A DNA stretch of 64,000 nt from positions 61,155 to 125,154 of IMG/VR virus record IMGVR_UViG_3300027749_000051; one strand, given 5' to 3'. Below, in pieces: positions 24,173 to 54,988 of the stretch. Under the pieces are notes generated by a model. That model was given only the letters and a program-made list of their open reading frames with translations. It did no database searches and had not been told where the DNA came from. The DNA comes from a virus. Within the stretch, counting starts at the first letter, position 1. Each line of letters begins with the position of its first letter. The position numbers and the translations under genes are program-made.

Positions 24173-24703
24173 CTATGTTTTAGATTTATGATTTAATATT
24201 TCTTCAACCTTATAATCTTCCCAACTGCCAGCATCTATAGTTTTTTCTACCTTATGATTAAGGACATCTTCTATATCAGTTTCAGGAAAATTAAATACAA
24301 CCACAGGTTTTTCTATTTTATAATCGAGGACATTATCTATGTTACGGTTATCTCTGCCTTGGAAAGATAAAGTTTTTTCTACCTTATGATTGAGGACATC
24401 TTCTACTTCCGATTCATCTATAATATTTCTATGTCGAGGTGTATCTACTTTATAATTAAGGATATCTTCTACAAAAGAGGATAGGATAGGTTCAAACTCA
24501 TTTCGTTCCATTGAAAATATGGTAAAAAAATCAGAGAAAAACCACCATCTCCAATACAAGATTCCTCGTTTTTTATATTCTAAATACCAATACTTATTTT
24601 CTCTGTCAATAATCCATATGGAGTCTTCATATGGAATTATCTCAGTATGTTTCAGATCATTATATAGTTTATCAAATATTATTTTCTTTAATCTGGGGTT
24701 CAT
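24173..24703 (-). CDS. Array-fused family protein, copy A (W/F-rich domain + 5 in-frame repeats)
   Basis: WIIDRENKYWY...LYWRWWFFSDFF domain followed by 22-aa-periodic VEDxLNxKV. Confidence 0.85.
   Translation of the reverse strand: MNPRLKKIIFDKLYNDLKHTEIIPYEDSIWIIDRENKYWYLEYKKRGILYWRWWFFSDFFTIFSMERNEFEPILSSFVEDILNYKVDTPRHRNIIDESEVEDVLNHKVEKTLSFQGRDNRNIDNVLDYKIEKPVVVFNFPETDIEDVLNHKVEKTIDAGSWEDYKVEEILNHKSKT
24174..24473 (-). CRISPR. CRISPR-like mini-array A inside CDS (5 degenerate 36-nt repeats, 4 spacers of 30 nt)
   Basis: Repeats at 24438-24473, 24372-24407, 24306-24341, 24240-24275, 24174-24209; exact 66-nt period. Confidence 0.55.
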
Positions 24704-24704
24704 T

Positions 24705-25254
24705 TTAATTAAGTATATTATCTACTTTAACAGGCCATGGGCAATAATCTGCTTTTGCTGTATTTACCTTATGATTCAGTACATCGTCCAATATTTTGTA
24801 GTTCTCAACCAATGATTTCATAGATGTTTCTCCATTATGGTTAAGTACATCTGCCGTCGGGTTTACGAATCCGCAATAACCGATCTTAGTTGCATCTACC
24901 TTATGATTAAGGATGTCTTCCTCTTTAGTGTAACCTGTTGTGTTTCGCCAAGTAGATATTGTTACTTTAGGGTTAAGGATGTCTTTCACCACTGGTGTTT
25001 GCGAATCGTTTGTAAAAAAGGATTTACTTACCTTATGATTAAGGATGTTTTCCACCTTAAGATGAGTAAGAAAATCTATACCATTAGATGTACTTACCTT
25101 ATGATTAAGGATGACTTCCACCGATGCGATGGCTGGACCAACACCAGTATCGGATGTGTTTACCTTATAATTAAGGATGTCTTCCACCAATGCAGAGAAA
25201 GCATTTGAAAGAAGAACAGATGTGCCTACCTTATGATTAAGGATGTCTTCCACC
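24705..25254 (-). CRISPR. CRISPR-like mini-array B inside CDS (8 repeats + partial, 8 spacers of 30 nt)
   Basis: Repeats start (+ strand) at 25219, 25153, 25087, 25021, 24955, 24889, 24823, 24757; first is GGTGGAAGACATCCTTAATCATAAGGTAGGCACATC in gene sense; degeneracy rises distally. Confidence 0.7.
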
Positions 25255-25484
25255 ATAGAAGTTAGAAATGGTTTATACTCATTTTGTTCCAATGAGAATA
25301 GTTGGAAAAAATTATTGAAAAACTCCCATCTCCACCATAATGTTCCTGATTTTTCAAATTCAAAATACCAGTACTTTTCTTTTCTATCAATAAACCATAT
25401 CGCATTATTATATGGGATTATCTCCACATGTTTCAGATCGTTATATAGTTTATCTAATATAATTTTTTTTAATCTCTCGTTCAT
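24705..25484 (-). CDS. Array-fused family protein, copy B (8 full + 1 partial repeats)
   Basis: Same N-terminal domain; 22-aa periodic tail to the stop codon. Confidence 0.85.
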   Translation of the reverse strand: MNERLKKIILDKLYNDLKHVEIIPYNNAIWFIDRKEKYWYFEFEKSGTLWWRWEFFNNFFQLFSLEQNEYKPFLTSMVEDILNHKVGTSVLLSNAFSALVEDILNYKVNTSDTGVGPAIASVEVILNHKVSTSNGIDFLTHLKVENILNHKVSKSFFTNDSQTPVVKDILNPKVTISTWRNTTGYTKEEDILNHKVDATKIGYCGFVNPTADVLNHNGETSMKSLVENYKILDDVLNHKVNTAKADYCPWPVKVDNILN

Positions 25485-25487
25485 AGT

Positions 25488-25955
25488 TTATATTTTATTT
25501 ACCTTACGATTTAAGATTCTTTCTACCAATCCTTCAGGTGGAACTTCATCAAAGAATGTTGTTTTTACCTTACGATTTAAGATGTCTTCCACCCAGCCTT
25601 TGGCTTTACCTATGAAATTATTTGATGTATCTACCTTACGATTTAAGATGTCTTCCACCGGGTCGATCGATTGATATTCCCCATTGAAAGATGTATCTAC
25701 CTTACGATTTAAGATGTCTTCCACCATATCTCGTATAAGTGGCTCATACTCATCTCGTTCCAATGAAAACAGGTAGAAAAAATTATTGAAAAACTCCCAT
25801 CTCCACCACAGAGTTCCATTTTTATTCAATTTAAAGTACCAGTATTTTTCATTTGGATCTATTGCCCATATATTGCCATCATCGACAATAATTTCGGAGC
25901 CCTTCATATCGTTCAAAAGTTTATCAAATATTATTTTCTTTATCCTGTCGTTCAT
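25488..25955 (-). CDS. Array-fused family protein, copy C (4 repeats)
   Basis: WAIDPNEKYWYF...GTLWWRWEFFNNFF; VEDILNRKV x3 plus VERILNRKV. Confidence 0.85.
   Translation of the reverse strand: MNDRIKKIIFDKLLNDMKGSEIIVDDGNIWAIDPNEKYWYFKLNKNGTLWWRWEFFNNFFYLFSLERDEYEPLIRDMVEDILNRKVDTSFNGEYQSIDPVEDILNRKVDTSNNFIGKAKGWVEDILNRKVKTTFFDEVPPEGLVERILNRKVNKI
25492..25725 (-). CRISPR. CRISPR-like mini-array C inside CDS (4 repeats, 3 spacers of 30 nt)
   Basis: GGTGGAAGACATCTTAAATCGTAAGGTAGATACATC identical at 25690-25725 and 25624-25659; variants at 25558-25593 and 25492-25527. Confidence 0.75.
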
Positions 25956-25974
25956 ATCATCTAAATTATCTTGG

Positions 25975-26005
25975 CAAAGATATTAAAAAAGATTAATACA
26001 ACAAA
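25975..26005 (-). promoter_or_regulatory. Bacteroidota sigmaA-type promoter driving the C-B-A operon
   Basis: Minus strand TTTG (26002-26005), 19-nt spacer, TATCTTTG (25975-25982). Confidence 0.7.
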
Positions 26006-26043
26006 ATATTTTCAAGGATATTGTGTGATTGAATTAATTTTAT

Positions 26044-26051
26044 TATCTTTG
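26044..26051 (+). promoter_or_regulatory. Divergent TAnnTTTG -7 element
   Basis: TATCTTTG upstream of the 26092-28114 gene run. Confidence 0.6.
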
Positions 26052-26091
26052 TGGAATAGAAAGTAAGTTATTAAATTAAAAGTTAAATAAT

Positions 26092-26253
26092 ATGTGGGTT
26101 AAGAAGAAGATTTTGGATCATTGGACTTATATTGAAAGAAAGACCAAAGTATTTGTTAGACGGGATTATCGTAATAACACCGTTGTGATTAATTTTATGG
26201 AAGGTGGTCCTTGTACTTTATATACTTATAAAGGTGAATGGATTGCGGGTTAA
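26092..26253 (+). CDS. 53-aa hypothetical protein
   Basis: Manual: MWVKKKILDHWTYIERKTKVFVRRDYRNNTVVINFMEGGPCTLYTYKGEWIAG. Confidence 0.55.
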   Translation: MWVKKKILDHWTYIERKTKVFVRRDYRNNTVVINFMEGGPCTLYTYKGEWIAG

Positions 26254-26274
26254 AAAAGAATTGGAGGAAAAGAA

Positions 26275-26826
26275 ATGAGCGGAGGACACTTTGATTACAA
26301 ACAAAACGAAATCGGTTATATTGCCGATGAGATAGAAAGCACCATTGAAAGAAATGGTAAGGAAAAGACCCAAGAGGAATTAAGAGATGAAGGATGGTGT
26401 AATTCTGAATTTCATAATCAATATCCTGAAGATAAATTTCACTATAAATATCCGGATGATGTTATTGAGAAATTTAAAGAGGCTGTTAATTTATTAAGAA
26501 AAGCACAAATCTATGCTCACAGAATTGATAGGTTATTATCAGGAGATGATGGAGAAGAATCATTTATTAAACGATTAAATGATGAATTGGATAAAATTGA
26601 GATTCCACTACCAAATGACGCGTTAATAGAGGCGGCACAACGATATAAGGAAAATGTTAGTGCAGGAGCGCTTACATCATCTAGTAATGGTTTAACATTG
26701 TCACCATCAACTATTAGTGGAATATGGAGTAGTAGCACTACTACTTGGAAAGGTGGTTATGTCACAAATAACTTTGAATCTTATTATATGGGTGAGAATG
26801 GTAATAAACATATAAATAATAAATGA
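26275..26826 (+). CDS. Hypothetical phage protein (MSGGHFDY N-terminus)
   Basis: 183-aa ORF; YAHRIDRLLSGDDGEESF motif. Confidence 0.75.
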   Translation: MSGGHFDYKQNEIGYIADEIESTIERNGKEKTQEELRDEGWCNSEFHNQYPEDKFHYKYPDDVIEKFKEAVNLLRKAQIYAHRIDRLLSGDDGEESFIKRLNDELDKIEIPLPNDALIEAAQRYKENVSAGALTSSSNGLTLSPSTISGIWSSSTTTWKGGYVTNNFESYYMGENGNKHINNK

Positions 26827-27281
26827 AAACTCAGAAAGAATATCCTGAGACACACTTCAGGAGCAGTGAGGCGGAAAGAATTCACAATGAGGGTTATGAA
26901 CTGATGCTCATTAATAATACTTTACCTTTTAACAACAGACCAGTTCTCGGAGATGCAAAACACGGATTTGTTAGTATGAGTTGGGATGCTTGGCATAAGA
27001 ATAGGGATAGTATGAGACTTAAACGACTTACCAATCCTCAACTCCTCAACGGAGAAATTAAGAATGATAGAATCGTTTCATTATATAAAGGATGTAAGGT
27101 TCATCTAATGAATAAGGGTGGGACATACATTGTTAAATCATATGATAATGAGGTGGCTGTGATCACTTGTCAGAGATGGGTTAACCAGAAAGAATGGGGA
27201 CAAAGATACAGAGATACCTTAACAGTTCCAAGAAGTGAAATAAAATGTCATTATGGGGGAACAAAATACGGCAAGTTGTAA
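26823..27281 (+). CDS. Hypothetical protein
   Basis: 152-aa ORF, ATGA overlap. Confidence 0.7.
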   Translation: MKTQKEYPETHFRSSEAERIHNEGYELMLINNTLPFNNRPVLGDAKHGFVSMSWDAWHKNRDSMRLKRLTNPQLLNGEIKNDRIVSLYKGCKVHLMNKGGTYIVKSYDNEVAVITCQRWVNQKEWGQRYRDTLTVPRSEIKCHYGGTKYGKL

Positions 27282-27325
27282 TATTTTTATTATATTTGTA
27301 TAATTAATCATTAAATCTTTTAGAT

Positions 27326-27577
27326 ATGACCGAATCGGACAGTGCTATTTTAGAAACACTTATTACAAAGTTATTAGAAGGAGTTGAATTAGAATCAAAA
27401 ACAGAAACCGCGATTGGATATCACGGAAGTTCACAGGGAGAAGAGATTACTTATACGATACATTATAATCCGTATCGTAGGACTTGGGAACCAAAAGAGT
27501 TTGCCTTAATGGGGCATGTGTTCTCAAAAATTAAACCAATAATCTTAAAAATTATAAATAAAGATGGGAATGTTTGA
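27326..27577 (+). CDS. Hypothetical protein
   Basis: 83-aa ORF after TATATTTG (27291). Confidence 0.65.
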   Translation: MTESDSAILETLITKLLEGVELESKTETAIGYHGSSQGEEITYTIHYNPYRRTWEPKEFALMGHVFSKIKPIILKIINKDGNV

Positions 27578-27947
27578 TACACTTTACATCAATATAGACA
27601 AATTGCCTATATCTGATAAGGAAAAAGAAACTATCGGCAATGATACCGAATGGCAGACCAAATCTTTTGATTGCGTCTTAACGGAGATATACATAACCGA
27701 TCAGAACGAATTAAAGATCAATCGATGGAATTATGAGGATGTTCCATTGGAAGACAGACCAAATCCACTTAAAGAAGGAATACTTGGATTTATGGGAAGC
27801 CTGAGAAGAGCCAATGAGAGATTGGAAATAATGTCTTATAATGGATATGTTAACTTTTATGGTAAAGGAGGAGATGATTGGTATGAGTTTAATGCCAAGT
27901 TTATTGATGGACTACTTCAAGGGATTGAGGGTGGAAAAATAGTTTAA
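27564..27947 (+). CDS. Hypothetical phage protein (MGMFDTL N-terminus)
   Basis: WQTKSFDCVL...WYEFNAKFIDG. Confidence 0.75.
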   Translation: MGMFDTLYINIDKLPISDKEKETIGNDTEWQTKSFDCVLTEIYITDQNELKINRWNYEDVPLEDRPNPLKEGILGFMGSLRRANERLEIMSYNGYVNFYGKGGDDWYEFNAKFIDGLLQGIEGGKIV

Positions 27948-27952
27948 GGTTG

Positions 27953-28114
27953 ATGAAGCATAGTTTTTGGAGGATATGGGCAAAATCATTAGGGGAGAAA
28001 ACAGGAGAGACCGATGAGGAAGCAGATAGAGTTGCGATGGTTAGAACAATAATCTTAATGGTATACATTATAACCAATTTAGTTATAATCGCAGGAATAA
28101 TTAGACACTGGTAA
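27953..28114 (+). CDS. 53-aa membrane protein of a myophage-type family
   Basis: Manual: MKHSFWRIWAKSLGEKTGETDEEADRVAMVRTIILMVYIITNLVIIAGIIRHW. Confidence 0.7.
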   Translation: MKHSFWRIWAKSLGEKTGETDEEADRVAMVRTIILMVYIITNLVIIAGIIRHW

Positions 28115-28143
28115 TTAACCCTCACCCAAAAGGTGGGGGTTAA

Positions 28144-28407
28144 TTATGAGATAACTTTAACTGGCAACTTATATCCTTTTTTGAACCAAGCGGATATAAC
28201 AATAAGGATTACATTATCAATGTAACCTTTTCCAAACTTCTTATTCAACTCGGACCTAACTATATCACTACAATACATTGTTGAGGTCTTAATATCAAAT
28301 AAGAAATACTCGTTATGCCAGGTCTGCTCAACCTTATCATAGTAAAGGTATGGGAACCCAAATTTATCATCTATGAATTTAACTATGTGTTTTTCTATTG
28401 TTGTCAT
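28144..28407 (-). CDS. Hypothetical protein
   Basis: 87-aa ORF ending at hairpin 28118-28140. Confidence 0.6.
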   Translation of the reverse strand: MTTIEKHIVKFIDDKFGFPYLYYDKVEQTWHNEYFLFDIKTSTMYCSDIVRSELNKKFGKGYIDNVILIVISAWFKKGYKLPVKVIS

Positions 28408-28434
28408 ATATACAAATATAATATATTTATTAAT

Positions 28435-28956
28435 ATGAACTTACAAGAAAACATACACAGGATTAAGGAAATGATGGGGATTAATGAAAAGCATGATCTC
28501 CTGAATAAACCTATCAAAGATATTATAGACCAAGTGGGAGGATATGGAACAGGATTCAACACCGATGAAGACGCCATAGAAGAAATAGAATATGTGGTAT
28601 CAAGTGATTTTCCTGAAGGTCTGAATAACATTCCAACTAAAGTAATCTTATATAGAGTTATATTATTGGAAGATGGTAAATCCATTAACGAGGATCAGGT
28701 TGGGGAACATTTCATTTCGGATACAAGACATATAGATAGATCGTTCTTGGAAAAGATAGATATATGGGACAATTGGGATGCGGACAATTCCAAGTTATGG
28801 TTACTACAATGTGAAACGGATGGGGATAATATAGATATAGAAAGAACATTAGGTAATAGAGTTCAATATCCTCGTGAGAATGAATTCACCCTGAAGAACG
28901 ATAAAAAGATTAGGTTGATAAAGAAAAAGATACTTAATAAAGAACAGCTTAGATGA
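28435..28956 (+). CDS. Putative ADP-ribosyltransferase-fold protein with MxLQENIxRIK leader
   Basis: LYRV...HFISD...RENEF resembles the R-S-E triad; start moved to ATG 28435 after TATTTAT. Confidence 0.45.
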   Translation: MNLQENIHRIKEMMGINEKHDLLNKPIKDIIDQVGGYGTGFNTDEDAIEEIEYVVSSDFPEGLNNIPTKVILYRVILLEDGKSINEDQVGEHFISDTRHIDRSFLEKIDIWDNWDADNSKLWLLQCETDGDNIDIERTLGNRVQYPRENEFTLKNDKKIRLIKKKILNKEQLR

Positions 28957-29483
28957 AATACATAATTACTGAGAGACAATATAGAGTGATATCCGAAGAA
29001 GTTAATCCTCGCATCAAAGAAATTATCTTCAATAAGTTATTGAATGATATGAAGGGTGTTGAGATTATTGAAGATAATGGTAGCATATGGGCAATAGATC
29101 CTGATGAGAAATACTGGTACTTTGAGTTGCAAGAAAACGGAACTTTATGGTGGAGATGGGGATTTTTCAATAATTTTTTCAAGTTATTTTCAATAGAAAG
29201 AAATGAGTTTGAACCACTTATGCGTGAACTGGTGGAAGACATCTTGAATCGCAAGGTAGTCACATCACTTCTAGTGCAATTCCTTGGTGACCTAATGGTG
29301 GAAGACATCTTGAATCGCAAGGTAGTCACATCCCACAGCGGACAGATTCACGTCCAAAGCCAGGTGGAAGACATCTTGAATCGCAAGGTAGTCACATCTA
29401 GTGGGCATGACCAAAGATTAACAATGTCAATAAAAGACATATTAAATCGTAGGAATAAGATAACCAAAGATGAGAACTTTTAA
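28953..29483 (+). CDS. Array-fused family protein, copy D (MKYIITE leader)
   Basis: Leader + W/F-rich domain + VEDILNRKVVTS x3. Confidence 0.9.
   Translation: MKYIITERQYRVISEEVNPRIKEIIFNKLLNDMKGVEIIEDNGSIWAIDPDEKYWYFELQENGTLWWRWGFFNNFFKLFSIERNEFEPLMRELVEDILNRKVVTSLLVQFLGDLMVEDILNRKVVTSHSGQIHVQSQVEDILNRKVVTSSGHDQRLTMSIKDILNRRNKITKDENF
29231..29464 (+). CRISPR. CRISPR-like mini-array D inside CDS (3 identical 36-nt repeats + degenerate terminal repeat, 3 spacers of 30 nt)
   Basis: GGTGGAAGACATCTTGAATCGCAAGGTAGTCACATC at 29231, 29297, 29363; degenerate copy at 29429. Confidence 0.8.
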
Positions 29484-29486
29484 GAT

Positions 29487-29804
29487 ATGAAACTACAAGA
29501 GAACATAGACAGAATTAAACAAGTGATGGGAGTTATCAATGAAGATAAACCATCAATCCATATTTTACGGAGATTACCTCAAATAGAGAGGGCATTAAAT
29601 CAGACATTATATTATTTATCTCCTTGTGAATATGATGATGTGGAATATTATACTGAACATGTATTACACCAACTTAGGGAATATTTTGAAGATTATGAAG
29701 AAGAAGAAGAGGTTGAACCTTTTGCGGCAACAAATTATGTTGCAGAATATTTATCATCTGAAATAGAAGAATATTACGATGACCGTAAAACAGAATGTGA
29801 ATAA
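29487..29804 (+). CDS. Acidic hypothetical protein with MKLQENIDRIKQVMG leader
   Basis: Leader identical to 29869 and 30581. Confidence 0.75.
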   Translation: MKLQENIDRIKQVMGVINEDKPSIHILRRLPQIERALNQTLYYLSPCEYDDVEYYTEHVLHQLREYFEDYEEEEEVEPFAATNYVAEYLSSEIEEYYDDRKTECE

Positions 29805-29868
29805 TAAAGAATATTCACTTAGACATAAACTATACAATATCAAATAAATCTATACAATATTTTTTATA

Positions 29869-30558
29869 ATGAAACTACAAGAGAATATAGATAGGATAAA
29901 ACAAGTGATGGGGATTATTACAGAATCACGACCAGGATTTTGTTTACCGAAAGATTATACTCCAGGAACAAAATATGGAAGGGATGAGTTAGCTAAGATG
30001 TTTGTATGTTTTACAAAAGATCCGAAGAAGTTTCCATTATTGGCGGTTAAGGAATGGTTATTTCCACAATTACCTGGTGGAGGATTTACGCCCCAAGATC
30101 CAATGAGTATGAGTTATGGTCAACCATATACTTTTACTATGGAAAGAATGGCAAAAGTAGAAGATAAAAATACAAGAAATATCACAGTCGGAATAAAAAC
30201 CATTGACCCAACTCAATTACCTGATGAAACAAAAAGATGGTTTAGTATAAAACAAAAATCTCCAGGATTTCAAGATAGATTTGACTATCAGATAAATAAG
30301 ATAAGGGAGAATGACTATGATACTACAGTTATAACACCTCAAGATGAGCCTATGGTTTTTGAGGTTATAAATAGAAAGTTATATATTCAAGAAGGGTGGC
30401 ATAGGTTAATGGCGATCTTAATGTTATTGGAGAAGGGGGAAATAATTCCTGATCAGGCTAAAGTATATGCTGTAACTGTATTTAGATCTCCCGATTTTAA
30501 GTTAAAAATAGTGGATAAACCAGAAGGCCTTTTTGAAAACATAAGAAATTACCAATAA
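29869..30558 (+). CDS. ParB/sulfiredoxin-like domain protein with leader
   Basis: EPMVFEV...LYIQEGWHRLMA resembles the ParB-N DGHHR motif. Confidence 0.55.
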   Translation: MKLQENIDRIKQVMGIITESRPGFCLPKDYTPGTKYGRDELAKMFVCFTKDPKKFPLLAVKEWLFPQLPGGGFTPQDPMSMSYGQPYTFTMERMAKVEDKNTRNITVGIKTIDPTQLPDETKRWFSIKQKSPGFQDRFDYQINKIRENDYDTTVITPQDEPMVFEVINRKLYIQEGWHRLMAILMLLEKGEIIPDQAKVYAVTVFRSPDFKLKIVDKPEGLFENIRNYQ

Positions 30559-30580
30559 TAACCAAGATAGATTTATAACA

Positions 30581-31060
30581 ATGAAACTACAAGAGAATAT
30601 AGATAGGATAAAACAAGTGATGGGGATTAATGAAACCTTTGACGCAGGGGTGGAACCAACTCTTAGAGACACCTATAACGAAGATGGGGCAAAAGTATAT
30701 TCATACATCCTTCCGTCAAAGAAAGATGAAAAAGATTACATCATCAACTTAAAGTTCTATAAGGAGTTTAAGGACCCGAAAATCAAAGATACATATAAAG
30801 ATGTTATGGTAATAGATTTTAATCTTGGGGCAGGGACTTATTACAATACCAACCTTAATGAAGTATTTTATATCTTTGCTTCAATCAATAAACTTATAGA
30901 GAAGTATAAGAAGAAGTTCCAATATCTTATGGGTTATTCAAACAAAGATAGATTGTCCTTATATAAGAAAGCATTGTCAAGAGCAAATTATTTGGAACTG
31001 GTAGATGAGGGATCACATCATATCATATATAAGAACAAAGATTATTCACGATGGTTCTAA
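30581..31060 (+). CDS. Hypothetical protein with leader
   Basis: MKLQENIDRIKQVMGINE leader. Confidence 0.75.
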   Translation: MKLQENIDRIKQVMGINETFDAGVEPTLRDTYNEDGAKVYSYILPSKKDEKDYIINLKFYKEFKDPKIKDTYKDVMVIDFNLGAGTYYNTNLNEVFYIFASINKLIEKYKKKFQYLMGYSNKDRLSLYKKALSRANYLELVDEGSHHIIYKNKDYSRWF

Positions 31061-31070
31061 ACCATACAAG

Positions 31071-31097
31071 ACCTCACCTAATAAGTGGGGTTTTTTT
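31071..31097 (+). terminator. Intrinsic terminator of the repeated ACCYCA...GTGGGGTTTT family
   Basis: AAGACCTCACCTAATAAGTGGGG (23 nt) is identical at 31068 and 34612. Confidence 0.85.
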
Positions 31098-40761: not shown

Positions 40762-41142
40762 ATGAAATACATAATTACCGAAAATCAATATAGACTGATT
40801 AATGAAGAGGTTAGCCCTCGCCTGAAAGATTTTATTTTTAATAAGTTATTGGAAGATATGAAGGGAGCCGAACTTATTGAAGATAAATTTAGCACCATAT
40901 GGGCAATTGATCCTGACGAGAAGTACTGGTACTTTGTATTGCTAAAAGATGGTACTTTATGGTGGAGACCGGACTTTTTCCATAATTTCTTTAGGTTGTT
41001 TTCATTGGGACAAAAAGAATTTGAGCCACTTATACGAGATATGGTGGGAGACATCTTAAATCGCAAGGTAGGTAAATCAGGCGCTTTTGAATCCTTGCAT
41101 CCTCTTCAGGTGGGAGACATCTTAAATCGCAATAAGAAATGA
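40762..41142 (+). CDS. Array-fused family protein, copy E (leader, 2 repeats)
   Basis: MKYIITENQY leader, W/F-rich domain, VGDILNRK x2. Confidence 0.88.
   Translation: MKYIITENQYRLINEEVSPRLKDFIFNKLLEDMKGAELIEDKFSTIWAIDPDEKYWYFVLLKDGTLWWRPDFFHNFFRLFSLGQKEFEPLIRDMVGDILNRKVGKSGAFESLHPLQVGDILNRNKK
41043..41132 (+). CRISPR. CRISPR-like repeat-spacer-partial repeat E inside CDS
   Basis: GGTGGGAGACATCTTAAATCGCAAGGTAGGTAAATC (41043-41078), 30-nt spacer, 24-nt identical truncated repeat (41109-41132). Confidence 0.6.
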
Positions 41143-44051: not shown

Positions 44052-44915
44052 ATGAAATACATTATAACCAAAGACCAATATAGATTGATTAATGAAGAGG
44101 TTAATCCAAGATTGAAGGAGATTATCTTCAAGAAGCTATTAAATGATCTGAAGGATGTTGAAATTATTGAAGATCCTGAAAATGGAGATATATGGGCCAT
44201 TGATCCTGAAAAAAAATATTGGTATTTTCAATTGAAAAAAAGCGGACTTTTATGGTGGAGATGGGATTTTTTCAATAATTTTTTCAGGGTGTTTTCAATG
44301 GAACAAAAACAATATGAACCACTTATAAGATCTATGGTGGAAGACCTATTAAATCGTAAGGTAGTCACATCTGTTAAGACAGGTGCTAAAGAGGTTGAGG
44401 TGGTGGAAGACCTATTAAATCGTAAGGTAGGCACATCTGATGGACGTAATTCTGTTCTTAAGGCTAAGGTGGAAGACCTATTAAATCGTAAGGTAGGCAC
44501 ATCCTATTTTAAATGGTCCAATAATGATGATCTGGTGGAAGACCTATTAAATCGTAAGGTAGGATCATCACTTAAAGAAGATTTGGCGGTATGGTTTGGA
44601 ACAAAGAAAAAACCAAAAGGTAGCAAACAACCTGCAGGACCTTGGGTTAATATATGTCGTAAAGATAAAGACGGAAAACATCCTCCTTGTGGTAGATCTG
44701 AAGCAAGTGATAAGGGATATCCAAAATGTCGTGCGGCTGGTGTTGCAGGTAAGATGAGCGACTCAGAAAAAAAATCGGCTTGTCAACAAAAAAGAAAAGC
44801 AGAAAAATCACATTCTAAATCAGGAACTGGAAACAAACCTAAGATGACTCATTATGAACCAAAAAATGAGCAATTACATCCTATTATTAGAAGATCAATA
44901 AGAGAATCTCTTTAA
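44052..44915 (+). CDS. Array-fused family protein, copy F, with extra Cys/Lys-rich C-terminal domain
   Basis: Leader + domain + VEDLLNRKV x4, then WFG...GPWVNIC...HPPCGR...YPKCR domain. Confidence 0.88.
   Translation: MKYIITKDQYRLINEEVNPRLKEIIFKKLLNDLKDVEIIEDPENGDIWAIDPEKKYWYFQLKKSGLLWWRWDFFNNFFRVFSMEQKQYEPLIRSMVEDLLNRKVVTSVKTGAKEVEVVEDLLNRKVGTSDGRNSVLKAKVEDLLNRKVGTSYFKWSNNDDLVEDLLNRKVGSSLKEDLAVWFGTKKKPKGSKQPAGPWVNICRKDKDGKHPPCGRSEASDKGYPKCRAAGVAGKMSDSEKKSACQQKRKAEKSHSKSGTGNKPKMTHYEPKNEQLHPIIRRSIRESL
44336..44569 (+). CRISPR. CRISPR-like mini-array F inside CDS (4 repeats, 3 spacers of 30 nt)
   Basis: GGTGGAAGACCTATTAAATCGTAAGGTAG(T/G)CACATC at 44336, 44402, 44468; variant ending GGATCATC at 44534. 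Confidence 0.8.
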
Positions 44916-44925: not shown

Positions 44926-45195
44926 TTAACAATATGCTCCAGAACAATGTCTATTTCCATCAAGCCCTTTAATTCTACCTTGACATACTTGAACGGCGTA
45001 GCCATTACTGTAAGCTGAGGGGTAGACTTTAAACTTAGCCTTCGCAGCTGCTTTACCTCTCGCACAAAGTTTAGTTCCTGACTTTTTCCTACTTTCCTGA
45101 ATGTCTTCAGATTGTCCTTTGATTTGTTCTTCTAAAACTTTTTTTACTAAAGATGAAATATCTTTTTCAGTTAACCTAATTACTTTAGTTCCCAT
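44926..45195 (-). CDS. Small basic protein with PSAY motif (DUF5872-like) and IRLTE leader
   Basis: KLCARGKAAAKAKFKVYPSAYSNGYAVQVC. Confidence 0.7.
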   Translation of the reverse strand: MGTKVIRLTEKDISSLVKKVLEEQIKGQSEDIQESRKKSGTKLCARGKAAAKAKFKVYPSAYSNGYAVQVCQGRIKGLDGNRHCSGAYC

Positions 45196-45485: not shown

Positions 45486-45510
45486 ATATAACAAAGTAAT
45501 TATATATAAG

Positions 45511-48085: not shown

Positions 48086-48166
48086 TTGGAAACTTAATAA
48101 TCTAAACCCTCCCCATAAAGGAGGATTTTACTTTACATTAATTGTATTAATTGATATTTTTAATAT

Positions 48167-48418: not shown

Positions 48419-48421
48419 ATT

Positions 48422-48646
48422 ATGGATAGAAATTTAATTGAGTTAACAAATGAAGATATAAATCTGACAATTATTGAGAATAATATTCTTTTACAAACAA
48501 CAGGTAATACAGATGTAATCTTTGAAAAAAAAGTAATGGACACCTTAATACAAGAATATTTGAATATTTCTGTTTTTGGTGTTAAATCGGATGAGGCTTG
48601 TGGTTGTGGGCATCACAAGATCTGTGGTTGTGGAGACAACAAGTAA
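48422..48646 (+). CDS. Hypothetical protein with Cys/His-rich tail
   Basis: CGCGHHKICGC; terminator at 48658-48692. Confidence 0.6.
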   Translation: MDRNLIELTNEDINLTIIENNILLQTTGNTDVIFEKKVMDTLIQEYLNISVFGVKSDEACGCGHHKICGCGDNK

Positions 48647-48733
48647 TATGAAAAATTAAAGGGATGAACTTAATATAGTGAATCCCTTTTTTTATGACTT
48701 CTTTTTATTATCTTTATAGAAAATAAATTATAG

Positions 48734-49393
48734 ATGTCAGACAAGTTTTCAGATTCAATTGGTAGGCTGTTAGGATTGCGTTATAAGTCGCATCCTTGGC
48801 ATGGTGTTCACATTGGTGTTAATGCTCCCGAGAGTGTTACAGCGTTTATTGAGGTGGTCCCAACGGACACCGTTAAGTATGAAATAGATAAAAGCACAGG
48901 TTATCTAAAGATAGATAGACCACAACAATTCTCAAATGTTGTTCCAGCATTATATGGATTTATCCCACAAACATATTGCGGAAAATTGGTTGCCAATGTA
49001 TGCAGTCAAAAAAATGGGATGGAAGAAATCAAGGGTGATGAAGACCCATTGGATATTATTGTTTTAACTGAGAAATCAATTCATCATGGAGATATCTTGG
49101 TAACTGCAAGACCAATTGGAGGATTTAGAATGATTGATGGTGATGAAGCCGATGATAAAATTATTGCGGTATTAAATAATGATTTTATATATGGGAAATT
49201 TGAAGACATTGATGATATTCCAGAAACAATCCTTAATCGACTTAAACATTATTTCACCACATATAAGGATTTACCGGGTGAAAAGAAAAACGCAACGATT
49301 ACTCATGTGTATAATAAAAAAGAAGCCCATGAGATTATTGGATTATCGATTGAGGACTATAACCAAAAGTTTGATAACATCGGAGATTTCTAA
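48734..49393 (+). CDS. ppa: Family I inorganic pyrophosphatase
   Basis: HPWHG, KYEIDK, LKIDR, YGFIPQTY, GDEDPLDI, DGDEADDKIIAV. Confidence 0.95.
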   Translation: MSDKFSDSIGRLLGLRYKSHPWHGVHIGVNAPESVTAFIEVVPTDTVKYEIDKSTGYLKIDRPQQFSNVVPALYGFIPQTYCGKLVANVCSQKNGMEEIKGDEDPLDIIVLTEKSIHHGDILVTARPIGGFRMIDGDEADDKIIAVLNNDFIYGKFEDIDDIPETILNRLKHYFTTYKDLPGEKKNATITHVYNKKEAHEIIGLSIEDYNQKFDNIGDF

Positions 49394-49563
49394 TGATTAA
49401 AGTTTATAAAGCGGTATATACTCACAAATGGTCGTTTCATTGGATCCCTTCAATCCAATTGTATAGTGAATCACATTCATTAACTCCTCAATCTATGAAT
49501 GGACTATATTTCTCAATCCAATTTGCTAAATGGGAATTTGTTATAGGATTTTATAACAAATAA
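49393..49563 (+). CDS. 56-aa hypothetical protein
   Basis: Manual: MIKVYKAVYTHKWSFHWIPSIQLYSESHSLTPQSMNGLYFSIQFAKWEFVIGFYNK; overlaps ppa stop (TAATG). Confidence 0.5.
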   Translation: MIKVYKAVYTHKWSFHWIPSIQLYSESHSLTPQSMNGLYFSIQFAKWEFVIGFYNK

Positions 49564-49600
49564 AAAAGACCTTCTACTAATTAAAGTGGAAGGTCTTTTT
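49562..49600. terminator. Bidirectional intrinsic terminator
   Basis: AAAAAAGACCTTCTAC-loop-GTGGAAGGTCTTTTT. Confidence 0.85.
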
Positions 49601-49617
49601 GTTTTGATTTAGGTTTG

Positions 49618-50211
49618 TTATTTCTTGTGAGATTTAACTTTTGAAATGGCGGTTTCCAATTCAGTTTTAATTGAGGTTGCCTTTTCTTTTGACGCTTTTA
49701 ATTTTGCGTTTGCTCCAAGTAAATCATTTGAAGAGATAAGTGTTTTTGATTCACTAATAGATGTTTCAACAACTGAAACTTCTGTTGTAATTGCTGCTAA
49801 CGCTTCTTTTCCGTCTTTACCCTTTGGTGCTTTTGATAACAATTCTTTATCGGTTGCAACCAATTCTGTTAATGAGATAATCAAAGTTTCGTTTTCTTTA
49901 ATTACTTCAGCCTCTTTCGCTTTAGACTTAGCTTTAACCTCAATTGCAAGATTGTTAACACCTGTTAACGATAGTTTAGAGGTTTTGTATGTCTTAAACC
50001 ATTTAGCCTTTTCAGATGCAAGAGTAATCTCGGTTTTTTGTAGAGAATCTACTAACGCTTTATATGCTTCAGGAACATATACATCAGCGCCAGCAACCTT
50101 TGCTGACTGAACCGATAGTTTAGTAATTTCAAACTCCTCAAGTGGGAATTTAGCACAAGATGTTAATAACACCATTGAAACCATAACAACAAATAATAAT
50201 TTTCTTTTCAT
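49618..50211 (-). CDS. Predicted lipoprotein with Ala/Lys/Glu-rich helical repeats (DUF4398-like)
   Basis: LLTSC lipobox; AGADVYVPEAY. Confidence 0.75.
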   Translation of the reverse strand: MKRKLLFVVMVSMVLLTSCAKFPLEEFEITKLSVQSAKVAGADVYVPEAYKALVDSLQKTEITLASEKAKWFKTYKTSKLSLTGVNNLAIEVKAKSKAKEAEVIKENETLIISLTELVATDKELLSKAPKGKDGKEALAAITTEVSVVETSISESKTLISSNDLLGANAKLKASKEKATSIKTELETAISKVKSHKK

Positions 50212-50341
50212 TTTGGATTTTAATTTTAATTTATTTTATTTTACAAACATAGATAAATACTTCGATATTACAAAGGATTCGTCTGAAAAAAATAATTAAT
50301 TTCTTTCCCCCTATTAACATATTTATATATAAAATATTACT

Positions 50342-51025
50342 ATGAATCGTAGCTACAGCAAAATTAGACACATGATGGAATCCAATATTAGATTGGAAAA
50401 ACGATTATTATCGGAACAAGCCGCAACAAACCCAACATCTACCAATGACAAGGCAATTGCCTTGGAAGCGTTAGATAACTTATCCAAAAATAACTTGGGA
50501 TATAAAAGTAAGTTTAAACCTGGATATCTTAACATTATCGGTGGTGTTGAAAAAGTTATTAATAGTTCTAACTCTGTTGGAACACATGCTGTTAGAATGA
50601 CACAATATTTGGTTTCGGACAAACCCGCAAATTATTCTAATGTAGATGTTCTTATCAGTGCATCAGGAGATAATGCTGTAAAAGATTTAACCGCAGATGA
50701 TCTTATTGGTTTAATTAACAATGGAGGAGCAACAGTGGATAAAATACGAACAACTGAGAGTCCATTTGACGCATCAGCAGCTTACATTTTCTTGACATTA
50801 ACTGAGACAGAAAAATTAACCCCACAAAATGCTCTTGCATTAATGAAATCGGTTAATCCAAATATCACGGACTCCATTTATAATGGAATTACAGAAAAAT
50901 GGCAAGCTGCAACCAGTACTGCAGATAAGGATTATTATAAAAAATTATCAGAAGTAATTCGTCCACAGGCGGCACCGGCGACACCTACTGCGCCATCAAC
51001 AGGAACACAAATTGCTCAAAAATAA
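50342..51025 (+). CDS. Hypothetical protein with MNRSYSKI leader
   Basis: Leader ends LLSE; PT-rich tail. Confidence 0.75.
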   Translation: MNRSYSKIRHMMESNIRLEKRLLSEQAATNPTSTNDKAIALEALDNLSKNNLGYKSKFKPGYLNIIGGVEKVINSSNSVGTHAVRMTQYLVSDKPANYSNVDVLISASGDNAVKDLTADDLIGLINNGGATVDKIRTTESPFDASAAYIFLTLTETEKLTPQNALALMKSVNPNITDSIYNGITEKWQAATSTADKDYYKKLSEVIRPQAAPATPTAPSTGTQIAQK

Positions 51026-51031
51026 TTTATT

Positions 51032-51319
51032 ATGGGAACATTAAGTTTTTTAGTTGCGAATTCGAATACATTGGAGTCAGTTTCAACTTTAACTCCATCA
51101 GTAACAATTTATGCCGAAGATTTGGGATTATGCCAATATTGTATTGATATAACAGAATCTTGTTGGGCATGTCTTACAACATCTCAACAAGTTTTTAATG
51201 ACGAAGCATTAACCTCTTCTGTAAGTGATGGATATTATTTGTTAAACTATTCAAACGGAAGTAATGCTGTTTGGTATATTGTCGGAGGATACCCGCAAGA
51301 AAGTAATTTTCTTAATTAA
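51032..51319 (+). CDS. Hypothetical protein
   Basis: 95-aa ORF with CxxC motifs. Confidence 0.65.
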   Translation: MGTLSFLVANSNTLESVSTLTPSVTIYAEDLGLCQYCIDITESCWACLTTSQQVFNDEALTSSVSDGYYLLNYSNGSNAVWYIVGGYPQESNFLN

Positions 51320-51333
51320 GGGATTCACCTTAT

Positions 51334-51677
51334 ATGAAATACCTTATAAGAGAAAACCAGCGTAGTAATGTCATAGATAAGTTTATCACACATTTGTTTG
51401 ATAGATATAGAAAGATTACACCTGAAGAAGATCCTAACATGACTTGGTGGTAGATGACGATGATATTATTATTTTAGAATTAAATGAGTTTGCCCCCTAT
51501 AATCAGTTTCATGTTGACGATAAGGTGTTTACGACAATTCAAAGAATGTTATCTCTTGATTATCTTGATGTTAAACGACATATTGGGTTTTGGATCCGAA
51601 AACATTTGGGAATAGAATATTGTGAGCCTTTAATTAGATTTGGGTCGGAAAAGATACCCCGACAATACCGAAAATAA
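51334..51677 (+). pseudogene. Frameshifted MKYLIRE-leader gene (two overlapping ORFs)
   Basis: 51334-51453 (MKYLIRENQRSNVIDKF...) ends in TAG; 51444-51677 continues in another frame and resembles the 54249 protein. Confidence 0.5.
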
Positions 51678-51701
51678 TATATTTATAATTAAACTTTTAT
51701 C

Positions 51702-51812
51702 ATGGGAAAGAAACGAGAAACGGTAAGAAAAGGAACAAGTCGGAAGTCATTAAATAAAGCTTCCAAACAAACAAAACTGAATAACATAGTTTTAAAGAAA
51801 TTCGGTTTTTAA
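51702..51812 (+). CDS. 36-aa basic peptide
   Basis: Manual: MGKKRETVRKGTSRKSLNKASKQTKLNNIVLKKFGF, between TATTTATA and a terminator. Confidence 0.55.
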   Translation: MGKKRETVRKGTSRKSLNKASKQTKLNNIVLKKFGF

Positions 51813-51817
51813 TTTAT

Positions 51818-51845
51818 AACCCTCATCTGAAAAGATGAGGGTTTT
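51818..51845 (+). terminator. Intrinsic terminator (GAAA loop)
   Basis: AACCCTCATCT-GAAA-AGATGAGGGTT. Confidence 0.85.
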
Positions 51846-51883
51846 CTTATTTATAATTCTATTTATATTAAACTAAAAAACTT

Positions 51884-52918
51884 ATGAAAAAAAATAAAAT
51901 AAATTATTCGCCTTTTAATTGCCCGTTATCAGGTATAACGAGTATTCAAGGTATTAGAGGTGTTGATGATTCACCAAATGTATATGTGTCAGGCACATTG
52001 ACTGACACAGCAAATGGTACCGCTGTAGGTCTCATTTACGATGGTCCTTTGACTTGTAATGGTAGTTTGGGTACTTGGTATCAATATTCATTTACAAGTC
52101 CTGATTTCGACGATGTGTTCAACACATCTTGTTACGGGCCAAATAATCTTGAAGACGGAGAAATCCAATTTGTTGGTTCATATAAAAGAACTTCCACAGG
52201 TCAAAATGCTTTGGGTATGTTATATGAAGGTCCATTGGATGGTAGTGGAACTTATACAACTATTTCACCAGATGAAGGAAATACTAAAAATGTATATGTT
52301 CATAGTGTTATGGGTGGATTCGCAGTTGGAAACTACGACACAGAATTATTTAATGGATTCTCATTTATCTACGATATTGAGAACGAAACATTTAACTATG
52401 TAAATCTTCCCGATTCCTATTCAACAACCCTTTACGGAATATGGCACAATGGTGGAACAAGTTACACAATCTGTGGTGGACACTTAAACATCGGTGTTAA
52501 ACAAATCAGTAAGGCATTTTTGGCAGATTATAATTCAGAAACAAATGAAGTTACAAATGTAAAAGATTATCAAGGACAAAATGAACCTTTGGACACAACT
52601 CTCACACATTTTGAAGGAATCACAGTTGGAGGAAAAAACTCTTATAATTTGGCCGCAGGATTTGCCAACACTGAAAATGGCGGAGGCGCAGCATTTGCCA
52701 AAATTAAAAGAAATTCAGATGGAACATTCGGTGAAGCAGAATGGGTTACATTGGCTTACCCAAGTTCAGATGTTAAGATGTCAACTTCAGACACAGTATA
52801 CAAAAATAAGATACTGGGAATTACTGTTGGTAATTCTGGTAGTTTCTCTTACTTGGCAGAAATACTTTTTAAAAAGAAGAAATCATTTTTATGTAAATTA
52901 TTCAGTTGTTTTAAATAA
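51884..52918 (+). CDS. Hypothetical Gly/Thr/Tyr-rich beta-repeat protein
   Basis: 344-aa ORF with repeated G-x-x-Y-D/E-G segments. Confidence 0.75.
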   Translation: MKKNKINYSPFNCPLSGITSIQGIRGVDDSPNVYVSGTLTDTANGTAVGLIYDGPLTCNGSLGTWYQYSFTSPDFDDVFNTSCYGPNNLEDGEIQFVGSYKRTSTGQNALGMLYEGPLDGSGTYTTISPDEGNTKNVYVHSVMGGFAVGNYDTELFNGFSFIYDIENETFNYVNLPDSYSTTLYGIWHNGGTSYTICGGHLNIGVKQISKAFLADYNSETNEVTNVKDYQGQNEPLDTTLTHFEGITVGGKNSYNLAAGFANTENGGGAAFAKIKRNSDGTFGEAEWVTLAYPSSDVKMSTSDTVYKNKILGITVGNSGSFSYLAEILFKKKKSFLCKLFSCFK

Positions 52919-52924
52919 AATCTT

Positions 52925-52953
52925 AAACCCCTCCCTAATAAGAGGGGTTTTTT
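52925..52953 (+). terminator. Intrinsic terminator
   Basis: AAACCCCTC-loop-GAGGGGTTT plus T run. Confidence 0.85.
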
Positions 52954-52984
52954 ATTTCCCATATATTTATAATGATATACTTTA

Positions 52985-53629
52985 ATGAAATCAATTCAAA
53001 TAACCGAATCACAACTTAATAATCTTGTTAAGGAAATCTTATCAGAAGATGTTAATCCAAAACTTGCAAAGATCGCAATGGGTAAGCTCTATGATGACAT
53101 TAAAGATGCCGAGGTTATTCCATATAGAAGTTCCGTTTGGATTATTGATAGAAAGAATAAGTATTGGTATATCGAATATAGAGATGGTGGAGCAATGTAT
53201 TGGAGACGGGATTTCTTCCAAGATTTTTTCAATATGTTCTCAATGAAGGATAAGGATTTTGAGCCTCTTTTAGTCACCATGATGGAAGATATTTTAAATA
53301 ATTATAAAGACATTTTAAAAAATATTGAGAAACCAGAATATACATCAGTAGAAGATGACCTCCGAAAAAATAATGGGGACACATTTATTTCACCCACATC
53401 TTTAGGGTATAACACAGGTTATGAAGATATCCCCAATCAGAAGGTAAAATCATCAGATCCATCATATAATAGAGAAACTCATACGGTGGGGAGCATTCTG
53501 AAAAATAATACAACCTCACCAAAAACAGATGTGGAAGATGTTCTAAAACATAAAGTAAAAACCCCAATGCCAGGATTTTTATCCTCAACTAATCCTTTGG
53601 ATAAAGTCCTAAAATCAACAGAACAATGA
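52985..53629 (+). CDS. Array-fused family protein, copy G (decayed repeats)
   Basis: Domain WIIDRKNKYWY...YWRRDFFQDFF; repeat relics at 53281, 53347, 53419, 53485, 53530, 53596 (spacing 66, 72, 66, 45, 66). Confidence 0.8.
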   Translation: MKSIQITESQLNNLVKEILSEDVNPKLAKIAMGKLYDDIKDAEVIPYRSSVWIIDRKNKYWYIEYRDGGAMYWRRDFFQDFFNMFSMKDKDFEPLLVTMMEDILNNYKDILKNIEKPEYTSVEDDLRKNNGDTFISPTSLGYNTGYEDIPNQKVKSSDPSYNRETHTVGSILKNNTTSPKTDVEDVLKHKVKTPMPGFLSSTNPLDKVLKSTEQ

Positions 53630-54252
53630 AATACATTATAACCGAAGAACAATATAATCTTATATTAGAGAACGAAGAAGGAAAACCATTCAAAAGTGTT
53701 GTTAAAAACATTTGTGATAGTGAAAAGTTCTGCAGTGCTCAAGGTAAAATTACCTTCGGTCAATTAAAAGCAATTGTTGATTCAGCGACAACTGAAAGAT
53801 TTATGAAATCTCTTGGTGAAGGAGGATATAAGGCAACCCTTCGTCTTATCCCATTTTTCTTACCTCAACTATCCATTGCAGGTTTCGTTGGATCCAGCAT
53901 TAGGGCAATTGATAAATTATTAAAGCCAACCATAACGGAAACAACAAAATATAAAACATGGTGGGGAAAAGTTATTATGAAAGTGTTTAATCTTGTTGAA
54001 GGAGAATTAAACTTAACAGATCCTTTCTCAAGAATATTTTTTATATCTGATGGTTTAATGACCATTATGGATGACAAGTTTAAACGAGCATTCGCTCGAC
54101 ACATTGCAGATATTGCAAGTGAAAAATCTGATAGTGAAGAAGTACCTGAGTTTTTTGTTGAAAATGAATTGAGAAAATGGATTAATGAGAAGTTTTTATT
54201 AAACCCACCATTACCACCAAAAACATACGAAGAAGAAGATTACACAATATGA
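53626..54252 (+). CDS. Hypothetical protein with MKYIITE leader
   Basis: 208-aa ORF, ATGA overlaps. Confidence 0.75.
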   Translation: MKYIITEEQYNLILENEEGKPFKSVVKNICDSEKFCSAQGKITFGQLKAIVDSATTERFMKSLGEGGYKATLRLIPFFLPQLSIAGFVGSSIRAIDKLLKPTITETTKYKTWWGKVIMKVFNLVEGELNLTDPFSRIFFISDGLMTIMDDKFKRAFARHIADIASEKSDSEEVPEFFVENELRKWINEKFLLNPPLPPKTYEEEDYTI

Positions 54253-54608
54253 AATACATTATAACCAAAGGACAACTACATAAAATTGCTTATCAACTAT
54301 TGGATGATCAGTTAAAGAATAATGGTGGATTTGAAGAAAACGAAGATTATGGTAATCATCGTTTTTCATTAGAAGATAAGAATGGAGATAGAATAATATC
54401 GGCAATCCATTATTCTGAAGAAAATGGAAGAGGAGAGACTCATGCATTTATTGGATGGAGGCTTATTCACACGATGTCTAAATTATTTTCAATTCGTCCA
54501 ACAAAAGCCGTTGATATTATTGGAGATTGGTTAAGTGAAACATTAAATCTTGAGATAGATGAGATTGATTTTGACAACACACATAAACCAGATAGTGACG
54601 ATTATTAA
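54249..54608 (+). CDS. Hypothetical protein with MKYIIT leader
   Basis: 119-aa ORF. Confidence 0.75.
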   Translation: MKYIITKGQLHKIAYQLLDDQLKNNGGFEENEDYGNHRFSLEDKNGDRIISAIHYSEENGRGETHAFIGWRLIHTMSKLFSIRPTKAVDIIGDWLSETLNLEIDEIDFDNTHKPDSDDY

Positions 54609-54988
54609 TGAAATACATTATAACTGAAAAACAACACCATCAGATTAGCGATAGAATAATTGATATTGCAATGGATAAACTTTATGATGATCTTAAAGTC
54701 GTAAAAATTATCCCATATCGCGGAGATGTCTGGTTTATTGACCCGAATACAAAAGAATGGTATTTTAAATATGGGCAAGATGAGGATGGAAGAAATGGAG
54801 TCTTAACCTATAGAGCAGACATTTTTGAAAACTTTTTCAGGATATTCTCAATGATGTTATCAGATTATGAACCCCTCTTAATTGATTTGGTTTTTAATGT
54901 GGTTGAAGAACCAATAGTGGATGTCCAAATTAGTAGATCAAACAAATCCCAAGAAGTTAATGATGTTCTTGACTCAATTAAGAAATAA
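54608..54988 (+). CDS. Array-fused family protein, copy H (domain only, no clear repeats)
   Basis: KLYDDLK...IIPY...WFIDPNTKEWYF...FENFFRIFSM...YEPLL. Confidence 0.75.
   Translation: MKYIITEKQHHQISDRIIDIAMDKLYDDLKVVKIIPYRGDVWFIDPNTKEWYFKYGQDEDGRNGVLTYRADIFENFFRIFSMMLSDYEPLLIDLVFNVVEEPIVDVQISRSNKSQEVNDVLDSIKK

Follow-up and report, generated by a model that had tools for sequence, protein, structure and literature searches.

The viral DNA analyzed here, a stretch of 64,000 nucleotides (nt) that we refer to as the window (positions 61,155 to 125,154 of IMG/VR record IMGVR_UViG_3300027749_000051; GC content, 0.326), is the second half of a 125-kb record for which CheckV estimates a completeness of 42%. 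It encompasses eight paralogous open reading frames (ORFs), denoted A to H, that share an N-terminal domain of about 77-90 residues; in copies A to F, this domain continues in frame into an array of 36-nt repeats and 30-nt spacers that is built like a CRISPR array. The initial annotation of this DNA had described eight paralogs with a common domain, and indeed, all eight ORFs are confirmed and align as a single family, in which 23 columns are invariant and identity to copy C is 37-62%; when the entire 125-kb record is searched, all copies of the family fall within the window. The parts of these genes are listed below, with the N-terminal domains, and copies G and H, delineated from the ORFs and the family alignment.

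24173..24473, minus strand: copy A array, five repeats and four spacers; the repeats are more diverged (older array)
24474..24703, minus strand: copy A N-terminal domain
24705..25254, minus strand: copy B array, nine repeats and eight spacers, with progressive repeat decay to the 3' end
25255..25484, minus strand: copy B N-terminal domain
25488..25725, minus strand: copy C array, four repeats and three spacers; the stop follows a degenerate last repeat
25726..25955, minus strand: copy C N-terminal domain, the "leader" side of the array
28953..29230, plus strand: copy D MKYIITE extension and N-terminal domain
29231..29483, plus strand: copy D array, four repeats, of which three are identical in the 36-nt register and the fourth is degenerate, three spacers and a short tail
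40762..41042, plus strand: copy E N-terminal domain
41043..41142, plus strand: copy E array, two repeats around one spacer; the stop cuts the second repeat
44052..44335, plus strand: copy F N-terminal domain
44336..44569, plus strand: copy F array, four repeats and three spacers
44570..44915, plus strand: copy F Lys/Cys-rich C-terminal domain, reached in frame by reading through the array (residues 197-257 against phrog_23735, E=1.1e-8)
52985..53629, plus strand: copy G, N-terminal domain and decayed repeats with irregular spacing
54608..54988, plus strand: copy H, N-terminal domain with traces of repeats only

The repeat units of copies A to F are spaced exactly 66 nt apart, and all 22 spacers are 30 nt long and free of stops, as originally noted. 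A random 30-mer from this genome is stop-free with a probability of 0.543, so that 22 open spacers in a row correspond to p=1.5e-6. The claim that no repeat lies beyond a stop codon holds as well, the only repeats past a stop being those of the next paralog. The lengths and the 66-nt period also stand, but the register had to be corrected: it is offset by one base from the codon frame, with the 36-nt repeat beginning one base before the codon boundary, that is, before the Val codon, and followed by the 30-nt spacer. The base preceding this Val codon is almost always G and is part of the repeat; codon 12 of the repeat has a free third base, which is part of the spacer. The repeats of one gene show no or hardly any differences in DNA, even at synonymous sites; between genes, they differ. 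Each array is closed by a degenerate repeat, and copies G and H retain decayed, irregular repeats only.

Copies D to H have an additional MKYIITE-type extension. At least eight ORFs, several of them otherwise unrelated, open with MKYIITE followed by D/E/K and Q (MKYIITE-type starts on the plus strand: 28953, 40762, 41139, 41421, 44052, 53626, 54249 and 54608), and this common start has the look of a 5' module, one that might be used in recombination or as a joint translation signal. Two neighboring ORFs (29487-29804 and 29869-30558) begin with a different common start, MKLQENIDRIKQVMG, and a start of this type recurs internally, as MNLQENIHRIKEMMG, in a third ORF (28315-28956). Beside the tail of copy F, the convergent ORF 44926-45195 (minus strand) is likewise Lys/Cys-rich and may carry a related small domain.

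Unit-wise turnover and protein-level selection

Beyond the window, an exhaustive profile search retrieves 348 representative clusters of this family at E<=1e-3 and 142 at E<=1e-10; the proteins among the matches listed are built alike, with 116 of 155 unit distances equal to 22 residues. In viral contigs, an alignment-based scan recovered the family and a single-protein scan gave no match; the sample of viral contigs analyzed here, from two scans, comprises 49 loci with 55 unique genes. Among the 262 spacers of these genes, 238 are 30 nt long and the others are multiples of three, mostly in old, distal parts of the arrays, and no repeat occurs beyond a stop save those of the next paralog. The N-terminal domain has no match in Pfam, PHROGs or the ESM Atlas, and no relatives were found in cultured phages, either by DNA or by protein. 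Structure searches against the PDB with Foldseek and VIA-align gave nothing above Z 4.9, the weak matches being mostly winged-helix-like and left unused, and an Rfam search of the arrays yielded no CRISPR-DR match.

Comparison of these arrays demonstrates turnover by whole units. Distinct spacers (82, later 158) are on average 27% identical, with a maximum of 53%, which is the chance level, and shared spacers are at least 96% identical; the distribution of identities is bimodal, and because no values fall between the two classes, gradual divergence from duplicated units is excluded. In seven ortholog groups of arrays from different samples, the differences are whole 66-nt units: the spacers at the far end are common to all members of a group, the strain-specific ones are concentrated beside the N-terminal domain, and internal deletions occur, too. 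In one such group, with the spacers numbered, one array reads 44-31-32-33-35-36-37, another lacks 44 and contains an extra 34, and a third reads 44-31-32-59-36-37. Spacers unique to one array occupy the first position in 9 of 26 arrays, 15 of 101 internal positions and the last position in 1 of 26 arrays (permutation p=0.002), and the identity of repeats to repeat 1 falls along the array from 0.94 to 0.69. Mosaic arrays (for example, 75-52-65-66-57-58) are present as well and, together with the internal novelties, show that recombination or ectopic insertion also takes place.

In these respects, the phage arrays behave as CRISPR arrays do: direct repeats and unique spacers are each of constant length (36 and 30 nt), gain is polarized to the leader end, with some novelties internal, the trailer is conserved, and the terminal repeat is degenerate. 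An ordinary tandem repeat would consist of homologous, gradually diverging whole units; here, the spacers are at chance identity and the repeats are identical. With distinct spacers about 27% identical and shared ones at least 96%, the original view that the arrays did not arise by tandem duplication of whole units is upheld, and the orthologous loci, where that annotation had looked to signs of gradual divergence as evidence of an ordinary protein repeat, display none, the gain being polarized to the end next to the N-terminal domain. Whole-unit tandem duplication combined with point mutation is ruled out by the chance-level identity of the spacers, and so is a diversity-generating retroelement, given that chance pairwise identity implies no template common to the spacers.

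The arrays are coding and are subject to selection at the protein level. Codon changes in shared spacers include 20 synonymous and 15 non-synonymous ones, with 22% synonymous changes expected under random mutation, and the nucleotide changes are distributed over the three codon positions as 7/7/22. Spacer GC content is 0.40 compared to 0.32 for the phages, and GC content at third codon positions (GC3) declines with age, from 0.379 in the youngest spacers through 0.342 in the middle group to 0.297 in the oldest, the genome value being 0.246; the composition of the youngest spacers is almost flat across codon positions. The spacers look like foreign or random DNA that has been slowly adjusted while being read as protein. 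In copy F, the match of the C-terminal tail to phrog_23735 shows that translation runs past the array. AlphaFold2, with a 97-sequence alignment, models residues 1-90, including a helix from the first repeat, at a predicted local distance difference test score (pLDDT) >90, and the later repeats as short, low-confidence helices with loops between them; the N-terminal domain is conserved as protein, with many synonymous changes. The odds of open spacers, the third-position bias of substitutions and the read-through domain of copy F all bear out the initial proposal that the arrays are translated, in which they differ from CRISPR arrays, which are non-coding.

The repeat is constrained at the nucleotide level, too, as shown by codon choice at the junction of leader and repeat, of which 45 distinct examples were compared. 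GTG accounts for 40 of 43 first Val codons, against a background of 14%, with GTT, the commonest Val codon of the genome, nearly absent, and AAG for 31 of 33 Lys codons (background, 32%); the third base of repeat codon 12, which is the first spacer base, varies freely. The phage repeats begin with GGTG and end with CAAC (CATC in this window), and a weak terminal stem is predicted in many of them. RNA folding of 26 repeat variants is weak (mean z -0.56), and alifold finds no consensus structure for these variants.

Likeness to type VI-B repeats

Type VI-B (Cas13b) repeats are 36 nt long, with GUUG...CAAC ends and a U-rich loop (10.1101/092577), and the spacers of Flavobacterium VI-B arrays are 30 bp (PMC5395568). 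The F. columnare VI-B array is without adaptation genes and gains spacers in trans via the type II-C Cas1/2, its transcription runs from the leader into the array, and a motif at the repeat's leader-distal end is common to the VI-B and II-C arrays of this bacterium (PMC8092290). We recovered bacterial VI-B-type arrays by a pattern search of 401, then 121, Bacteroidota genomes; one of these arrays adjoins a Cas13b gene (E=6e-224), and for another, Cas13b is encoded in the same genome, on a different contig. Compared in the sense orientation, the phage repeats are identical to the VI-B-type repeats at a mean of 18-22 of 36 bases, and the best match, 27/36 (75%), is to a repeat from a genome that also encodes Cas13b. 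The reverse complements yield 15-19/36, a II-C or V-A repeat 10-14/36, and the best of 12,000 random 36-mers 21/36; eight bacterial repeats have 23 invariant columns, and the phage consensus agrees with 16 of these. The VI-B-like match is seen only in the orientation of CRISPR RNA (crRNA), and the 36-nt repeat, the approximately 30-nt spacer and the sense orientation downstream of the leader are all as in VI-B arrays. Judging from these comparisons, kinship with type VI-B arrays is likely but, for reasons given below, not established. The parts of the repeat that are retained, namely, both ends, the AAGGTA block and the 36/30 ruler, are easier to reconcile with recognition by an adaptation complex than with binding by Cas13b.

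On the leader side of every array, some 49-57 nt upstream of repeat 1, a conserved T-run encodes the invariant Phe-Phe of the N-terminal domain (25775-25782, minus strand, is one such site). Poly(T)/poly(A) tracts occur at similar distances in II-C and VI-B leaders (PMC8092290), a likeness that may be coincidental.

Phage type, neighboring genes and host signals

Related records are 209-326 kb in size, two of them being rated 100% complete, and contain a large terminase (Terminase_6N matched); neither Terminase_6C nor a capsid protein of nucleocytoplasmic large DNA viruses (NCLDV) was found in the related phage records. Because of this size range, the presence of the large terminase and the absence of an NCLDV capsid, these elements can be considered jumbo tailed phages; for most of their genes, Pfam and PHROG searches indicate no known family. 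In one related record rated 100% complete (G003), family copies are located at both contig ends (3690-4046 and 307854-309177; loci L094 and L109), and it is probable that the genome is circularly permuted, with the family cluster extending over its junction. The genes in the window include a DNA methyltransferase, a homing endonuclease, an SbcC-like protein and a virion-protein-like ORF, and the following features stand out besides the array family.

7157-8650, plus strand: large HNH/homing endonuclease (phrog_3339, E=2e-103), among phage replication-type genes
20979-23468, minus strand, and 13876-19282, plus strand: auxiliary metabolic genes, with an S-adenosylmethionine synthetase adjoining an S-adenosylhomocysteine hydrolase (methyl-cycle pair)
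25975..26005, minus strand: Bacteroidota-type promoter-like site TTTG-N19-TAnnTTTG, directly upstream of copy C and heading C-B-A

Further on, the same metabolic stretches (20979-23468, minus strand; 13876-19282, plus strand) encode two GT2 glycosyltransferases, a UDP-galactopyranose mutase and a porin-like ORF. The promoter motif TTTG-N18-20-TAnnTTTG, which we take to be typical of Bacteroidota, has 11 sites in the window against 2.15 expected, and 0 of 100 shuffles reached 11. The sites of this approximately five-fold enriched motif are at 9445, 11701, 12271, 25975, 57137 and six other positions, and TATCTTTG is common to five of them. Alongside this motif can be placed the -33 TTG element mentioned in PMC8092290. 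The enrichment suggests transcription units that depend on the host polymerase and a Bacteroidota host, and the gene family belongs to jumbo tailed phages that probably infect Bacteroidota.

Origin and possible role of the arrays

The explanation that we consider probable is CRISPR-type insertion of units into a translated phage gene, most likely, by the host Cas1-Cas2 acting in trans. The data show the anatomy of the arrays, their unit-wise polarized turnover and the constraints on coding and on the repeat as nucleic acid; which integrase acts, where it comes from, what the spacers derive from and what the protein does, we infer as follows. The gene combines a folded N-terminal domain of about 80-90 residues with an in-frame array that has the geometry of Bacteroidota class 2 CRISPR (36-bp repeat, 30-bp spacer). 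An integrase of the Cas1-Cas2 kind would duplicate the repeat beside this domain, on the "leader" side, and insert 30 bp of unrelated DNA; the integrase is most likely the host's, acting in trans, because the phage records examined carry no Cas1. The frame is preserved because one unit is 66 bp, or 22 codons, and only stop-free insertions would survive. Recombination between repeats would lose or exchange units, and the far end decays. In the resulting protein, the N-terminal domain is followed by units in which the repeat supplies a short helix and the spacer a variable loop of 10 residues, with the loops, once fixed, being under purifying selection. According to the citation of Nivala et al. 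2018 in 10.1101/148544, off-target integration can found arrays. Our best guess at the function is a fast-diversifying phage protein involved in host interaction or counter-defense; as a weaker, second possibility, the mRNA may also engage a host Cas13b system. A more far-reaching, tentative proposal is that phages use CRISPR-type integration as a protein-diversifying engine, with each acquisition adding a random 10-residue loop, the useful loops being retained by selection as a heritable peptide repertoire that evolves fast, and the mRNA perhaps acting on the host Cas13b.

A number of observations weigh against this explanation. Growth of the arrays is not strictly polar because 15 of the 25 strain-specific spacers are internal, and purifying selection on loops of random origin is unexpected. 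Cas1 was found neither in the partial record that contains the window nor in four records of related phages, of which two are complete, and Cas13b was found neither in the same partial record nor in three related phage records, in agreement with the early remark that the window encodes no cas gene. No protospacers were detected in the fetched loci, in the phage's own genome or in five whole related phage records; 150 spacers compared with about 1 Mb of related phage genomes gave no protospacer, with best matches of 14-20 nt; and one young spacer searched against a metagenome collection matched only the array itself, these searches together covering only a small part of sequence space. The initial notion of spacers as foreign DNA, therefore, finds no protospacer to support it in any of the loci and genomes compared, and of the Cas1-Cas2-type insertion proposed at the same time, the polarized gain of whole units stands, whereas the host Cas1-Cas2 is a putative agent, no Cas1 having been found in the phage records examined. 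In one bacterial genome that encodes Cas13b, the spacers gave no match to these phages, which leaves a role of this bacterium as a host unsupported. Further points concern the relationship with type VI-B. The bacterial VI-B repeats are identical to each other at 26-33 of 36 bases, above the phage-bacterial mean of 18-22. The phage consensus is devoid of the U-rich loop that is invariant in the eight bacterial repeats and that would introduce a TGA stop if read in the phage frame. A degenerate phage-repeat pattern, run against 185,579 species genomes, retrieved no bacterial array, only single chance matches. It is because of the absent loop, the lower identity and the lack of a bacterial array found by pattern, along with the weak folds, that the kinship is not established.

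One alternative is an ordinary 22-residue helix-loop repeat that involves no CRISPR machinery, in which gene conversion homogenizes the conserved half and recombination at the repeats shuffles the loops among paralogs and strains, and which resembles VI-B repeats by coincidence or as a very ancient feature. Under such a scenario, it is natural that the arrays are translated and the loops constrained, that mosaic arrays occur and many strain-specific spacers are internal, that the VI-B likeness is partial, without the U-rich loop, and that neither a cas gene nor a protospacer was found in the records searched. We nevertheless regard it as unlikely. Recombination makes no new sequence, yet there are 158 distinct spacers without residual similarity, and spacer length is fixed at 30 nt; novelty is biased to the leader end, with the repeats decaying away from the leader; the young spacers are flat in composition and GC-richer, unlike phage coding DNA; and the repeat has settled on rare synonymous codons.

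The nucleotide-level constraint on the repeat, the many repeat copies per genome, and the VI-B-like geometry, orientation and partial sequence could all be taken to mean that the RNA is the point, that is, phage pre-crRNAs or Racr-like repeat decoys load or titrate the host Cas13b, and translation is incidental, for example, a means of RNA protection. Repeat mimics are a known phage strategy, with none for type VI found in a survey that masked ORFs (PMC10651486). This account appears improbable, considering that the third-codon-position bias of substitutions in the spacers implies protein-level selection, that the U-rich loop invariant in bacterial VI-B repeats is missing, that the predicted folds are weak (mean z -0.56) with no consensus structure, and that the spacers match no related phage, unlike those of known viral mini-arrays (PMC11656645). 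The pre-crRNA or decoy idea had been put forward in the initial annotation; what can be retained of it is the VI-B-like size, spacing and orientation, and about 55-75% of the bases, but not the U-rich loop or strong folding. An integrase encoded by the phage itself and unrelated to Cas1 would be in keeping with the lack of Cas1 in the phage records and with the absence of a known family for most phage genes, but no candidate was identified, and host class 2 arrays have matching repeat ends and the same 36/30 geometry, so that we deem this option very improbable. Finally, a gene-calling artefact, whereby the 66-nt period keeps the frame of a non-coding CRISPR array that is open by chance, is refuted by the odds of 22 open spacers (p=1.5e-6), the absence of repeats beyond the stop in 55 genes, the coding-type substitution pattern, the conservation of the N-terminal domain as protein, and the C-terminal domain of copy F past the array.

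Several known systems resemble the phage arrays in part. With Bacteroidota VI-B arrays, they share the 36-bp repeat, the 30-bp spacer, the leader-to-array direction of transcription, apparently repeat ends of the G-TG...CAAC type and the AAGGTA block, with up to 27/36 identical bases in the crRNA sense only, as well as leader-end growth, a degenerate terminal repeat and the lack of adaptation genes at the locus. Unlike VI-B arrays, they lie within an ORF and are translated, with a protein domain in place of the leader; they are phage-borne, lack the U-rich loop and have no cas13b nearby, and no protospacers were found in the searches made. Multi-core precursors of ribosomally synthesized and post-translationally modified peptides (RiPPs), such as those of the cyanobactin PatE type, consist of an N-terminal leader and repeated recognition segments that flank hypervariable short cores, and are encoded by multi-copy genes. 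The phage genes, also multi-copy, similarly encode a leader and then conserved flanks around hypervariable cores; unlike in RiPP precursors, the leader is a folded 80-residue domain, and the CRISPR-like DNA dynamics is not known to have a RiPP counterpart. No proteases or cyclases were noticed among the neighboring genes with Pfam or PHROG matches, although no systematic search was made.

Like viral mini-arrays and solitary repeat units (RNA anti-CRISPRs, Racr), the phage arrays are phage-borne CRISPR-type repeats without cas genes that presumably depend on host proteins. Related viruses are the main targets of known viral mini-arrays, the repeats of which are identical to those of the host (PMC11656645); for the arrays described here, the closest bacterial repeat found is 75% identical. 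The mini-arrays are non-coding and contain one or two spacers, whereas the phage arrays, several per genome, contain up to eight spacers each, are translated and match no related phage. Neo-CRISPR arrays, as cited in 10.1101/148544 (Nivala et al. 2018), likewise can arise and grow at leader-repeat-like sites outside CRISPR; in that citation, they are a laboratory observation in E. coli with overexpressed Cas1-Cas2, whereas here we are dealing with a conserved, widespread family, in frame and under selection. The literature searched contained no description of CRISPR-type arrays that are translated. CRISPR arrays are considered to be non-coding, and repeats of a CRISPR-like kind within ORFs are routinely masked or dismissed as false positives. 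A survey of viral repeat mimics, which reported no type VI example, masked ORFs before the search (PMC10651486) and would, therefore, have hidden a family of translated arrays. The combination of CRISPR-like build and turnover with an open, translated frame is found in no known CRISPR array or protein repeat.

Thus, a large family of phage genes combines the dynamics of CRISPR spacer turnover with the substitution pattern of coding sequences. If an integrase writes the variable loops, this would be a new way to generate protein diversity and a new viral use of CRISPR adaptation. The family points to an interplay of phages with the type II-C and VI-B systems of Bacteroidota and would present a natural example of one DNA that serves as an integration target, perhaps an RNA ligand, and a protein at once.

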